A stretch of 64,000 nucleotides of DNA from Candidatus Omnitrophota bacterium (GTDB lineage Bacteria; Omnitrophota; Gorgyraeia; JAFGGP01), in the NCBI GenBank assembly GCA_016930485.1, contig JAFGGP010000021.1:12452-76451 (forward strand). Reading direction: 5' to 3'. Positions 25,030-46,296 of the stretch are shown piece after piece. Within the stretch, counting starts at the first letter, position 1. Each line of letters starts with the position of its first letter. The notes beneath the pieces are model-generated. The model searched no databases, was not told the origin of the DNA, and saw only the letters and a list, made by a program, of their open reading frames with translations. The translations under genes and the position numbers were made by a program.

Positions 25030-25081
25030 AAAAAACTATTGAAAGCGATAGCCCCACCCGATAAGCGGGACTACCGCTTTC
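25030..25081 (-). terminator. hairpin plus T-tract immediately after the tRNA 3' end
   Basis: The minus strand reads GAAAGCGGTAG[TCCCGCTTATCGGGTGGGG]CTATCGCTTTC-AATAG-TTTTTT. The outer stem is 11 bp and contains an inner CCCG/CGGG hairpin. Confidence 0.55.
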
Positions 25082-25086
25082 TCAAT

Positions 25087-25409
25087 TGGCTCCCCCGGTA
25101 GGACTCGAACCTACGACCTAGTGGTTACAGTTATCCCTAAGTTTCCTTAGAGGCTGGACTATATCATTGCCCTTTCTCAAAGAGAGGGGGGCACCAGGCG
25201 CTTCCCCTTTAGTCGACACTAAAGAGTACTTCCTTGCGGAATAGTCTCTGCACCTTCCCTGAACCACGTAGGGTTCAGGGCTTGGCTCAGGATTACCGTG
25301 CCTTTTGCAAGTTTAGGCTTTCCTGAATTCACCCGGTTTTCACTCTACGGTTTCCCATAGAGGCTGCGCTTCGCACAGCCACCCGCTCTACCGACTGAGC
25401 TACAGGGGA
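25087..25409 (-). tRNA. tRNA-Asn(GUU) interrupted by a group I intron in the anticodon loop
   Basis: Exons 25409-25375 (35 nt) and 25127-25087 (41 nt) join to TCCCCTGTAGCTCAGTCGGTAGAGCGGGTGGCTGT|TAACCACTAGGTCGTAGGTTCGAGTCCTACCGGGGGAGCCA. This gives a full cloverleaf, anticodon loop CUGUUAA, G73 and an encoded CCA. Confidence 0.85.
25128..25374 (-). ncRNA. group I intron (IC3-like, 247 nt, no ORF)
   Basis: P1 pairs exon GGCUGU with intron GCAGCC, giving U-G at the 5' splice site. P2 is CUCUAUGG-GAAA-CCGUAGAG. The core strings GAGCCAAGC and GAAGGUGCAGAGACUA are present, and the intron ends in G. Confidence 0.85.
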
Positions 25410-25652
25410 GTGAATGTGTTTAACTCATTAAAAATAAATGAGATATCTGTTTAGAAAGAGCAATTTACAGTAGAATAAGTGTAATATTTATCACCTTAAT
25501 TGTCAAGGGGAAAGCTGGCTTCATACATTTGGAGAGAAATGGTTCGGTTGCCTCCACCTGCAACCAAAACACAGCCAAAAAAAGACCGAAAGCATCTATT
25601 CGCCTTCGGTCTGTTATGCCGGATGACTTTCTTTGAAAAGAACCGCGAGAAA

Positions 25653-43430: not shown

Positions 43431-44465
43431 TTAATACTCTTCTTTCCACTGGGCGGAGCTTATGGTATCGGTACCACCGATAAAGTGCGGAGGAGGATTG
43501 GTAACGATCGCCGGGTCATAGATACAGGTGATGTCCTCTGCAGAGTTCATATTCAAATTATTGCCGGCGATGATGGTTCCCAAAAAGGTCACGCCGCTCA
43601 GATTGTTCATGATGACATTATTGACATTGAGTGCGGCATAAACCAACCCCTGAATGGTTGAGCTGGAAAGTTGATTTGCATTTATGTTGCCGCGTGAGAT
43701 AAGGGCCGGATAATTATCGACGGGATCGATTGTGATTCCCGACGACTGCCCTAAATCAATGTTGCCCTCGGCAATGATCGTCCCGTTAATCGTTACCCAG
43801 CTTTCGACCGTGGCATTGCCGGTAATATACCAGACACCGTTGTAGCTGCCGCCCGACAAAAAGGTATAATCGCCGGTGATGCGCTGGGTCGATGGTGCGT
43901 CATTATAGTAGCCTGTAAAATCGACCGTGGGAAGCGGTACACCCGAACTTGGTTCGATATCCCCGTCCACATCGATCTCTCCCATATGGACCGAGCCGCT
44001 ACCCGAGCTGACGTCGCCCTCGAGTAAGCCGTCGGTATTGCTCATATTGATATTATTGCCCGCGTGTATGGCATAATTGAACGCCTCCGGGGGGGCGCCC
44101 GGGGTAAGAACAAAGGACTGGACAACCGTCCTCGAGGTCTCCCCATAGGTGCCTGTGGACTCGACATCAACGCTGTGTGAACTTACGTTGGCGAACTCTA
44201 CCGAAAAACTTCCCGGCCCCAGCGACCTGGAAAAATCAGTGACGTCGCTCCAGTTCGAATCAGAGTCAAGCTGCTCCTCGAGCGCACACTGGATCCCCGC
44301 CTCGGCAAGAAATAACGCCTGGGTCGCTTTATAGGTGTCCTCTGCCATATGGGTATCGACGACAAAGCAGGAGCCCGCGACGAATGCCATCGTTGAAAGC
44401 GTCAACATGATAAAGACCGTTATCATGATTGACATCCCTTTGTCGTTGAGAACCAGGCGTTTCAT
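43431..44465 (-). CDS. PilX/GspK-like large minor pseudopilin with an Asn/Gly-rich repetitive C-terminal domain
   Basis: MKRLVLNDKGMSIMITVFIMLTLSTMA...QALFLAEAGIQ (PilX_N-like). This is followed by GNNINMSN, GNIDLG, GNINAN and GNNLNMNS repeats. Confidence 0.7.
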   Translation of the reverse strand: MKRLVLNDKGMSIMITVFIMLTLSTMAFVAGSCFVVDTHMAEDTYKATQALFLAEAGIQCALEEQLDSDSNWSDVTDFSRSLGPGSFSVEFANVSSHSVDVESTGTYGETSRTVVQSFVLTPGAPPEAFNYAIHAGNNINMSNTDGLLEGDVSSGSGSVHMGEIDVDGDIEPSSGVPLPTVDFTGYYNDAPSTQRITGDYTFLSGGSYNGVWYITGNATVESWVTINGTIIAEGNIDLGQSSGITIDPVDNYPALISRGNINANQLSSSTIQGLVYAALNVNNVIMNNLSGVTFLGTIIAGNNLNMNSAEDITCIYDPAIVTNPPPHFIGGTDTISSAQWKEEY

Positions 44466-44473
44466 AGTGCACC

Positions 44474-44959
44474 TCACCCCGCGTTCCTGAGCCACACCCT
44501 GTTCTGCAGGGAAAATGAACCGGTGGAATTTTGAAGCGTGACGGTAACGATAACCGAACGGATATCGATGATGTTGCTGGTTGTATTATTGTTGCCGTCG
44601 CGATAAGCGAACGACAACCCTGCGGTACTGTCTAAATTCGATGCGAGCACATAGCCGTTCCTTAAAAGATTGCCCCCGCTCTGTTCAAACCGGATATGCG
44701 TTCCGTGTGCATCGTTAAATTCAAGGACCCCCGAAGTCGCCACCGTGATATCGCCGCTCCCCCCGATTTGCCGTACCTCTCTGGCTACCTTGAACATCGA
44801 GGTACGCGCCTCGGCAATGACATCTCTCCGCTCCATAACAAAGGTCCAGGAATCGGCAGCGCTTGCCAAAAGCGGTGCCAGACTCCCTGCAAGGATGCCG
44901 ACAACAACGATCACCAGAATAATTTCTACAAATGTAAAACCCGCGTTCCCCTTTTTCAT
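44474..44959 (-). CDS. prepilin-type N-terminal cleavage/methylation domain protein (PilW/GspJ-like)
   Basis: MKKGNAG|FTFVEIILVIVVVGILAG has the class III signal with Glu at position +5. Confidence 0.8.
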   Translation of the reverse strand: MKKGNAGFTFVEIILVIVVVGILAGSLAPLLASAADSWTFVMERRDVIAEARTSMFKVAREVRQIGGSGDITVATSGVLEFNDAHGTHIRFEQSGGNLLRNGYVLASNLDSTAGLSFAYRDGNNNTTSNIIDIRSVIVTVTLQNSTGSFSLQNRVWLRNAG

Positions 44960-44971
44960 ATCTTCCCCACT

Positions 44972-45385
44972 TTACTCAACGTTCAGATAATCGGTCCTCA
45001 GGCCCACCAGCTGTACGCACACCGACCCTCCATGGTATACCCGGACAAGTACCCGTTTATACTCGGTGGCGCTACCCGACGGGGTATTTAAGGAGCTCGA
45101 GGCGACATAATTGCAAACAACGTCGTAACTGTACGTACTGAAGGGTGCTGAAAATGACGTTTGGCTGACGTTGCCGACCGCAAGAAAAGACTTGTTAAAG
45201 ATCTCCTCCATCTTTGCCTCTGCGAGTGAGGTCGCAACGCTCTTGATTTCGTTTGTCTGAGCCTGGTATGCCCCCTCCCCCAGTGCGATGGCGATCGGTA
45301 CAATACAGATACCGATGATTACGATAACGATGACCAGCTCTACCAAAAAATACCCTTTCTGGAAACGAACTGTATGCGGCTTCAT
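44972..45385 (-). CDS. prepilin-type minor pseudopilin (GspI/PilV-like)
   Basis: FQKG|YFLVELVIVIVIIGI. Confidence 0.72.
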   Translation of the reverse strand: MKPHTVRFQKGYFLVELVIVIVIIGICIVPIAIALGEGAYQAQTNEIKSVATSLAEAKMEEIFNKSFLAVGNVSQTSFSAPFSTYSYDVVCNYVASSSLNTPSGSATEYKRVLVRVYHGGSVCVQLVGLRTDYLNVE

Positions 45386-45876
45386 TGCAGCGACACCCTC
45401 CCTGTCTCAGGTTCCACCTGAACCGTCGTCGAAAAATCAGAGGAATACTGCAGTGTTATAACAGCCGCCGTGGTAAGCAGATTTCCGTAGGCGTCGCATG
45501 GTTCTCCTGCGGCATTGAATTCCAGATTATATCCAAAATTGGTGCTGATCAGATTAATGCCTTTGTACTGATCGATATTCGGATAGCTTATAATCATATT
45601 GGTTCCGGTAATCGGGCTTACTACCTTATCGCTGGTCACCTGCTTGTAGAGATAGTACTGCTCGTTTGCCGTATCAAAATAAATGCCGTGGGGAACGCGC
45701 CTGGTTACTGCCAACTCGTGGGCATACGCGATATCGGAACCGAGCTGCCTGGCGACACTTCTCAATTTCAGCACGGGATAAGGACGGGTATACGACACGG
45801 CCGTCGCGGCCAGGACAAAAATAATAGACATCGCTATAATCAACTCAATAAGTGTTACGCCTTTATTGGCTCGCAT
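45382..45876 (-). CDS. GspH/FimT-family minor pseudopilin
   Basis: MRANKG|VTLIELIIAMSIIFVLAA...LRSVARQLGSDIAYAHELAV. RBS GGAGAG. Confidence 0.8.
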   Translation of the reverse strand: MRANKGVTLIELIIAMSIIFVLAATAVSYTRPYPVLKLRSVARQLGSDIAYAHELAVTRRVPHGIYFDTANEQYYLYKQVTSDKVVSPITGTNMIISYPNIDQYKGINLISTNFGYNLEFNAAGEPCDAYGNLLTTAAVITLQYSSDFSTTVQVEPETGRVSLQ

Positions 45877-45971: not shown

Positions 45972-46068
45972 TTCGGCAACCGGCTGCCTTACCCTTGCAC
46001 CCCGCTCGGTTCAGGGAGTAGGCCCTTGGCTTTGCGTCCCATTCTTTCGAATAGTTTGCCTTTATCGA
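45972..46068 (-). promoter_or_regulatory. c-di-GMP-I (GEMM-I) riboswitch aptamer
   Basis: The minus strand reads AAAGGCAAACUAUUCGAAAGAAUGGGACGCAAAGCCAAGGGCCUA...GCGGGGUGCAAGGGUAAGGCAGCC. This matches the GGCAAAC / GAAA-tetraloop hairpin / GGGACGCAAAGCC core of the Vc2-type aptamer as I recall it. Confidence 0.85.
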
Positions 46069-46296
46069 CGTTCTAATTGTATAGTTTTTCTCTACTTATA
46101 AGTATGCCATATATTATTATAGAAAACAATACAGGGGTTAAAGGAAGTGGGGTCTATTTGTATCTTTTTCCTAATAAAGAGGTTACGGTATATTGTGCTA
46201 TTCCCATCCATTCCTCTTTCACGGCTGTCCCGGTCCAGGCAGCGATGCTTGACCTCTGCCTGTGGCATTGCTAGAATATGTCAAAAAGGGGACTGT

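Follow-up and report, generated by a model that had tools for sequence, protein, structure and literature searches.

The stretch of DNA analysed here, 64,000 nucleotides in its entirety and hereafter called the window, very probably carries a chromosomal gene for tRNA-Asn(GUU), from an uncultured bacterium of the Omnitrophota, in which U35 and U36 are separated by a group I intron that lacks an ORF, is of the IA1 type and belongs to the published family of introns at position 35/36. The insertion point lies within the anticodon (CUGU/intron/UAA). ARAGORN folds the joined exons, TCCCCTGTAGCTCAGTCGGTAGAGCGGGTGGCTGTTAACCACTAGGTCGTAGGTTCGAGTCCTACCGGGGGAGCCA, into the cloverleaf of a 76 nt tRNA-Asn(gtt) with a 7-bp acceptor stem including one G-U pair, a D stem GCTC/GAGC, an anticodon stem GGTGG/CCACT with the loop CTGTTAA, a T arm GTAGG-TTCGAGT-CCTAC, G73 and an encoded CCA. 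Two exons of 35 and 41 nt, joining into a canonical tRNA-Asn(GUU) and separated by 247 nt between U35 and U36, had been proposed in an earlier sequence-only reading; all stems and loops listed there are present in the ARAGORN structure, and the same split point recurs in at least 90 other genes. Across the junction, the 44 central nucleotides recur unchanged in tRNA-Asn(GUU) genes that have no intron, located on 22 metagenome contigs, and U1-A72 and G73 agree with the other bacterial family members among the matches listed. The coordinates of all features are given in Table 1.

The tRNA gene is solitary, with a coiled-coil ORF on one side and the gene for TolC on the other. Proteins encoded in the window include GltB, GlnA, AmtB, a MacAB-TolC efflux system, an ArnT-like transferase, a MATE transporter and an ECF sigma factor. 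Judged by this gene content, the host, an Omnitrophota MAG, is a diderm with ordinary metabolism and not a reduced Patescibacteria genome. For the window GlnA, NCBI has a protein of 100% identity, encoded on an 80-kb contig and assigned to Candidatus Omnitrophica, and several of the next-best matches, at about 80%, bear the same label.

Table 1. Features of the split tRNA-Asn gene and its intron (window coordinates). Changes on both sides of a pair are termed compensatory.
Feature	Description	Position	Strand	Evidence
Promoter-like site	TTGACA-17-TACACT, about 69 nt upstream of tRNA position 1	25478..25506	minus	consensus scan 10/12, pattern match only
tRNA-Asn 5' exon	35 nt, tRNA positions 1-35, ending in CUGU; U35 is the -1 nucleotide	25375..25409	minus	acceptor, D arm and 5' anticodon stem drawn by ARAGORN on joined exons
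Group I intron	247 nt, ORF-less; first base G at 25374, omega-G at 25128	25128..25374	minus	RF00028, 85.4 bits, E 2.5e-20
tRNA-Asn 3' exon	41 nt, positions 36-76: UAA..., T arm, G73, encoded CCA	25087..25127	minus	ARAGORN on joined exons
Terminator-like site	hairpin with 19-pair stem, then T-run AATAGTTTTT; begins 6 nt after encoded CCA	25031..25081	minus	consensus scan, pattern match only
P1	exon GGCUGU (25380..25375) with guide GCAGCC (25367..25362), GC/GC extension, GAA loop	25362..25380	minus	U35-G wobble at 5' splice site in 24/24; three further pairs invariant
P2	hairpin, GAAA tetraloop	25344..25361	minus	7/7 pairs compensatory
P3	25337..25330 with 25200..25193; encloses P4, P5, P6/P6a, P7 5' strand, P7.1 and P7.2	25193..25337	minus	3 compensatory pairs; 86.5% of cells pair
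P4	25326..25321/25292..25287	within P4-P6a domain 25252..25326	minus	5/6 pairs compensatory
P5		25318..25315/25303..25300	minus	48.8% of cells paired in MAFFT alignment, poor support
P6		25286..25284/25254..25252	minus	read off window sequence with Rfam alignment and RNAalifold
P6a		25280..25272/25265..25257	minus	9/9 pairs compensatory
P7	5' strand 25248..25242 (G-A-GACUA, bulged A), 3' strand 25161..25156 (UAGUCC)	25156..25248	minus	6/6 pairs invariant in 24/24 sequences
P7.1 and P7.2	P7.1 UUCC-GCAA-GGAA (25241..25230), GUA, P7.2 of 9 bp with GUCG loop (25226..25205), then GAA	25205..25241	minus	4/4 and 9/9 pairs compensatory
P8	hairpin	25169..25192	minus	3/4 outer pairs compensatory; 94.8% of cells pair
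P9.0	AG/CU, 25155..25154 with 25130..25129	within 25129..25155	minus	2/2 pairs compensatory
P9	hairpin 25152..25135, GAAA tetraloop, just 5' of omega-G	within 25129..25155	minus	5/7 pairs compensatory

The covariance model RF00028 (Rfam Intron_gpI), named in the sequence-only reading as a check on its group I assignment, matches the intron over model positions 1-253 of 253; the 85.4 bits lie well above the gathering score of 50 bits, and the E-value of 2.5e-20 rules out a chance match. The hallmarks recognised by eye in that reading are likewise found in the intron: a P1 with a U-G pair at the splice site (GGCUGU/GCAGCC, U35-G in 24 of 24 homologues), a GAAA-capped P2, the core strings GGGAAACC, GAATTCAGGAAAGCCTAAAC, GAGCCAAGC and GAAGGTGCAGAGACTA, and a 3'-terminal G. 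The helices of Table 1 were read off the window sequence, aided by the Rfam alignment and RNAalifold. P7 and P3 form a pseudoknot; P7 is presumably the guanosine-binding helix, in line with established knowledge of group I introns. A P10 pairing of the 3' exon UAACC with bases 5' of the guide sequence was looked for by eye, and no convincing pairing emerged.

For the covariation counts, 24 homologues with 60-67% identity to the window were aligned by MAFFT without structural guidance. Standard pairs occupy 88.9% of the cells, versus 34-43% in controls whose 3' partners were slid 1-3 columns along, and both sides change in 50 of 75 pairs. The covariation score reaches 0.478, compared with 0.05-0.12 in the slid controls, and the observed values for pairing and covariation are reached by none of 500 shuffles. 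Compensatory changes are present in each of P2, P3, P4, P6a, P7.1, P7.2, P8, P9.0 and P9. P7 and four P1 pairs never vary, and the invariance of P7 renders it uninformative for covariation; the low value of P5 is probably due to the poor alignment of L5. In the window copy, all 13 helices are free of mismatches. Among the columns conserved at 90% or more, the consensus base is kept in 85 of 88, and two of the three deviations keep or add a base pair. The last P4 pair is A-U in the window and not G-U as in 23 of 24 relatives, and the first base of J8/7 is A versus G in 21 of 23 relatives. With its helices free of mismatches and only three of 88 columns deviating, the ribozyme therefore looks intact.

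Catalytic self-splicing of the window intron may be expected by homology with a Patescibacteria member of the family that is active in vitro. The gene would be transcribed on its own, between the promoter-like and the terminator-like site, and the transcript would fold into the group I core with P1 (including the U35-G pair), P2, the P3/P7 pseudoknot, P4-P6, P7.1/P7.2, P8, P9.0 and P9. Exogenous guanosine, bound in P7, would attack the phosphodiester bond after U35; omega-G (25128) would then replace the guanosine in its site, and the freed 3'-OH of U35 would attack after omega-G. Ligation of the exons would create the anticodon loop CUGUUAA, and end processing would yield the 76 nt tRNA.

It is improbable that the intron is instead a decaying, non-splicing relic in a pseudogene whose task has passed to an intact tRNA-Asn gene at another place in the genome. 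The intron has no homing-endonuclease ORF, as a relic might, and a k-mer-assembled Logan contig, 100% identical to the window, stops in the 5' exon at 25380 (tRNA position 30); such an end could be explained by a second sequence in that sample with the first ~30 nt of the tRNA in common, and may be taken as a weak hint of another copy. The perfect cloverleaf formed by the exons, the mismatch-free helices, the retained consensus bases and the promoter-like and terminator-like sites, all in place, argue against decay. ORF-less introns, moreover, make up the majority of the family among the matches listed, and the split genes of Patescibacteria are the sole tRNA-Asn copies of their genomes (PMC13011429). 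An intron-less allele was sought in a metagenome scan, which returned the 22 contigs mentioned above, all with different acceptor stems and none syntenic with the window; these are tRNA-Asn genes of other taxa, silent on an empty site or a paralogue.

The longest ORF in the window intron, 46 aa, is a chance frame lacking an HNH motif, in accordance with the earlier statement that a homing-endonuclease ORF is absent, and the P1 loop (L1) is a bare GAA of 3 nt. An HNH-like ORF is found inside L1 in about 25 relatives (about a quarter among the matches listed), one of them an Omnitrophota copy (L069). In the long introns this ORF comprises 100-135 aa with a CxxC…HH…CANCH motif and scores 17.7-20.1 bits against Pfam HNH, just under the cut-off of 21.4. 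Its start lies 16-68 nt inside the intron and its end reaches the guide sequence or runs across it, which places the ORF in the P1 loop. Most simply, the window intron is the descendant of a mobile intron carrying an HNH endonuclease, from whose P1 loop the ORF was lost, and is now vertically inherited. That an ORF was lost, and not absent from the outset, we infer.

The family was collected by scanning one genome per species with a pattern that runs from the 3' strand of P7 through omega-G into a 3' exon resembling that of tRNA-Asn. The scan yielded at least 120 matching stretches, and in at least 90 of these loci a tRNA gene split at the same point could be reconstructed; the window's own genome is absent among the matches listed. 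All 91 of the 91 genes among the matches listed, the window included, are tRNA-Asn(gtt) with U-1 and omega-G. According to record titles, the hosts among the matches listed are CPR/Patescibacteria (at least 43), Omnitrophota (at least 6, plus the window), Cyanobacteria (at least 6), 'Deltaproteobacteria' (at least 6), Nitrospirota (at least 5), Planctomycetota (at least 3), Methylomirabilota (at least 2), Limnocylindria (at least 2), Elusimicrobia (at least 1), Margulisbacteria (at least 1), archaea-labelled bins (at least 3) and unclassified bins (at least 5). At least 7 bins among the matches listed are labelled Gammaproteobacteria, a label made doubtful by exons that resemble the CPR copies. 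Altogether at least 47 of the at least 90 relatives listed are labelled outside CPR/Patescibacteria, at least 7 of these labels being doubtful. Intron lengths among the matches listed fall into two classes of approximately 190-350 nt and 520-630 nt. Two archaeal-looking (DPANN) contigs (JAGVXA010000008.1 and JAFCDH010000004.1) contain the same intron in their tRNA-Asn genes.

Identity between the window intron and the sampled relatives ranges from about 60 to 71%. No donor lineage can be named, the nearest sampled relatives, about 69-71% identical in the core columns, coming from both CPR and 'delta' hosts. The flanks of the window share no synteny with the intron-bearing loci listed, with the exception of an identical Logan contig (L001). 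The published view holds that introns at 35/36 are 'rare in other phyla' and their horizontal transfer 'likely infrequent' (PMC13011429). The window and its at least 90 relatives, at least 47 of them labelled non-CPR (at least 7 labels doubtful), suggest that the class is more widespread than the survey of complete genomes indicated. A bolder reading, which we regard as tentative and rather doubtful, is that the split gene is the sole tRNA-Asn of a well-equipped diderm Omnitrophota, whose Asn decoding would depend wholly on a ribozyme, and that the family, driven by HNH endonucleases, has reached this one tRNA-Asn site in at least 12 bacterial phyla and in DPANN archaea. If this were true, the spread would be much broader than the published wording implies.

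In the Michel-Westhof scheme, the mark of subgroup IA is an extension made up of P7.1 and P7.2 that separates P7 from the P3 3' strand. In the window 40 nt lie between the P7 5' strand (GAGACUA) and the P3 3' strand, arranged as a 4-bp hairpin with GCAA loop, GUA, a 9-bp hairpin and GAA, and the same layout occurs with compensatory changes in about 30 homologues. Other family members among the matches listed differ in this place: Cyanobacteria, Nitrospirota and several 'delta' bins have one long hairpin containing the motif GAGGA…CCAAUAA, and just one nucleotide is present in four of the remaining Omnitrophota copies, in one Planctomycetia and one Collierbacteria bin, in both Limnocylindria and in one Pacearchaeota copy. 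Subgroup-labelled reference introns were taken from Table S5 of PMC13011429. In whole-intron alignments the best partners of the window intron are Nitrospirota tRNA-Asn introns labelled IA1 (scores 198 and 174), followed by five IC3 introns (136-146), with an IA3 and an IB3 intron last (about 110). Judged by its architecture and by alignment to these labelled sequences, the intron is of the IA1 type and not of the Azoarcus/IC3 type.

It is accordingly most improbable that an Azoarcus-like IC3 intron has moved into a new tRNA host. What likeness there is resides mainly in the 5' half, where the strings aattcaggaaagcc, aatcctgagccaagcc and gaaggtgcagagacta are close to those of IC3 introns in tRNA-Leu and tRNA-fMet. 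The fraction of window positions matched there is 0.62-0.69 for the IC3 introns, compared with 0.73-0.74 for the IA1 Asn introns. L2 and L9 are moreover GAAA tetraloops, as in the Azoarcus intron. In the five IC3 references, however, P7 runs straight into the P3 3' strand (gagact followed by cgacgg, aaacgg, agttgg or tgacgg) and P7.1/P7.2 are lacking, whereas the 40 nt of the window form both hairpins and both covary; the alignment scores favour the IA1-labelled Asn introns, and subgroup covariance models assign 25 of 28 introns at 35/36 to IA (PMC13011429). The near-identity to the Azoarcus IC3 core claimed in the sequence-only reading thus stands as a resemblance of the 5' core strings and fails for the 3' half, the overall architecture and the best alignments; the IC3-like 5' half explains the comparison with Azoarcus in that reading.

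Annotation of the gene by standard tools goes astray. In its default mode ARAGORN calls no tRNA in the whole 64-kb window, and in intron mode (-i) it reports a tRNA-Thr (tgt) i(34,247) with a junction 2 nt upstream; a genome annotated in this way would seem to be without tRNA-Asn. A tRNA-Thr(UGU) gene with its intron between positions 33 and 34 is formally possible, since TG is duplicated at both junctions, but its probability is close to nil: the intron would end in C (...AUAAC) and not in G, the -1 nucleotide U33 would fall in a U-A pair where a U-G wobble is invariant in 24 of 24 relatives, the tRNA body is of the Asn type both in its 44 junction-spanning nucleotides and in U1-A72 and G73, and the 2 nt shift is a documented annotation artefact, the Asn junction having been experimentally verified for a relative (PMC13011429). 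The miscalling of Asn 35/36 introns as Thr(UGU) 33/34 is described by Nakagawa et al. (PMC13011429) as a recurrent error of ARAGORN and tFind. For the window the Thr(UGU) reading was rejected on account of omega-G, the U-G wobble and the Asn-type tRNA body.

An Asn(GUU) host with an insertion at 35/36 had been held in the sequence-only reading to lie outside the known cases, which is contradicted by the literature. The four classical settings of bacterial tRNA introns were expanded to 21 by Williams (2020, bioRxiv 10.1101/2020.01.27.920355), including Asn at 35/36 under the name 'Asn.4Ug', and Nakagawa et al. (preprint 2025, mSystems 2026; PMC13011429) deal chiefly with tRNA-Asn introns at 35/36. 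These authors demonstrated precise in vitro self-splicing of Patescibacteria tRNA-Asn and tRNA-Asp 35/36 introns, and found 28 introns at this position in 4,934 complete genomes, 19 of them in Patescibacteria and the remainder in Cyanobacteriota, Nitrospirota, Bacillota_A, Bipolaricaulota and Pseudomonadota; some of the tRNA-Asn introns carry HNH endonucleases (PMC13011429). The sole Omnitrophota entry of that survey is an IC3 intron in tRNA-fMet (PMC13011429). Since the Asn 35/36 class is published and the Omnitrophota entry of the survey is of another kind, the window intron is a new example, from a further phylum, of a class that is already known and has been validated by experiment. The tRNA-Asn 35/36 intron thereby gains Omnitrophota as hosts; what is understood of group I introns does not change, and the window intron alone opens no new question.

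Among known systems, the intron in pre-tRNA-Ile(CAU) of Azoarcus sp. BH72 and the other IC3 introns of bacterial tRNAs are likewise small ORF-less ribozymes in the anticodon loop. The IC3 introns compared (the Table S5 sequences) share with the window a P1 built from nucleotides of the anticodon stem and loop and very similar P3-P4-P6-P7 core strings. They differ in host tRNA and insertion site (Leu-UAA 34/35, fMet 33/34 and Arg-CCU 36/37, versus Asn 35/36 in the window), in the absence of the P7.1/P7.2 extension, and in J8/7, which is GAUAUAGUCC in the window versus, for example, GAGAGAGUCC or GAGAAAGUCC in the IC3 references.

Many described phage introns belong to subgroup IA. A search of a phage collection gave only partial similarity in the core, besides matches to the tRNA T arm: the P3-P7 core of the window is 70-75% identical to sequences in or near the DNA-polymerase genes of Pseudoalteromonas phage pYD6-A and Klebsiella phages. 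The phage introns differ in that they reside in protein-coding hosts outside any tRNA context, and the match comprises 31-39% of the query only.

The closest counterparts are the Asn.4Ug introns, i.e. the tRNA-Asn 35/36 introns of Nakagawa et al. The window host, an Omnitrophota bacterium, belongs to a phylum for which they list no 35/36 intron (PMC13011429). The window intron shares with them the host tRNA, the insertion point (CUGU/…G/UAA), U-1 and omega-G, an IA-type architecture containing P7.1, a class that is usually ORF-less and otherwise HNH-carrying, and the same miscall by ARAGORN and tFind as Thr(UGU) 33/34.

Of 90 split tRNA-Asn(GUU) genes related to the one in the window and reconstructed from the 120 stretches listed in the genome scan, 47 lie in bins labelled outside CPR/Patescibacteria; a published survey of complete genomes describes the 35/36 site as 'rare in other phyla'. 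Exons of CPR-like type occur, among the matches listed, in at least seven bins labelled Gammaproteobacteria, and these seven may be mislabelled.

The short members of the family differ between P7 and the 3' strand of P3, a segment corresponding to window 25241..25201. Among the matches listed it is filled in three alternative ways at one and the same tRNA site: by P7.1, GUA, P7.2 and GAA in succession, by one long hairpin with conserved GAGGA…CCAAUAA, or by one nucleotide. Both the first and the third filling are present among the listed Omnitrophota bins.

Long introns carry an HNH-like ORF of 100-135 aa (motif CxxC…HH…CANCH) in the P1 loop. The 3' end of this ORF reaches or overlaps the internal guide GCAGCY, and coding sequence and ribozyme guide therefore overlap. 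Several copies look degraded, among them those of the loci L008, L010 and L085, where no ORF reaches 85 aa. The 1858-nt insert in Nitrospira sp. CG24E possesses several ORFs of 87-185 aa, in which no clear HNH motif was found, and it may hold a nested insertion.

Location of the features (L002-L121 denote loci from the genome scan)
Feature	Location	Strand	Details
Split tRNA-Asn(GUU), 35/36	L004 1884..2217	+	contig labelled Candidatus Pacearchaeota, 76.5 kb
Split tRNA-Asn(GUU), 35/36	L010 894..1392	+	contig labelled Candidatus Pacearchaeota, 21.5 kb
Split tRNA-Asn, Nitrospira sp. CG24E	L052 5026..6959	-	1858-nt insert
HNH-like ORF, P1 loop	L007, L011, L014, L019, L025, L026, L038, L041, L042, L044, L069 and others		intron length 519-630 nt
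c-di-GMP-I riboswitch	window 45972..46070	-	RF01051, 75.2 bits
ORF run after riboswitch	window 45876..45382, 45385..44972, 44959..44474, 44495..43431	-	

A Logan contig 100% identical to the window (L001, SRR13394437) ends within the 5' exon, at tRNA position 30 (window 25380). In a k-mer based assembly, such an end would fit a further sequence in the SRR13394437 sample with a common tRNA-Asn 5' part, be it an extra gene copy or a related strain.

Elsewhere in the window, a run of ORFs immediately follows a c-di-GMP-I riboswitch. In the first three ORFs the N-terminus is hydrophobic and of prepilin/pseudopilin type (…GVTLIELIIAM…, …GYFLVELVIVI… and …GFTFVEIILVI…), which, together with the upstream riboswitch, suggests from sequence a pilus or pseudopilus operon under c-di-GMP control.

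The two Pacearchaeota-labelled contigs carry introns of the same family as the window's; that of L004 scores 83 bits against RF00028, and that of L010 falls below the gathering score. Their exons, with G1-C72 and no encoded CCA, differ from every bacterial copy among the matches listed. The flanks are mutually syntenic and look archaeal in character: immediately upstream of both split genes there is a match to the 'universal archaeal KH protein' family arCOG04150, at E values of 3e-27 and 2e-30 and in each case below the curated cut-off, and L010 additionally bears a Taw3-like ORF. Since the archaeal group I introns found by Nawrocki 2018 were all in rRNA genes, and a Pacearchaeota tRNA match was set aside as probable mis-binning (Williams 2020), these two may be unreported group I introns within archaeal tRNA genes.
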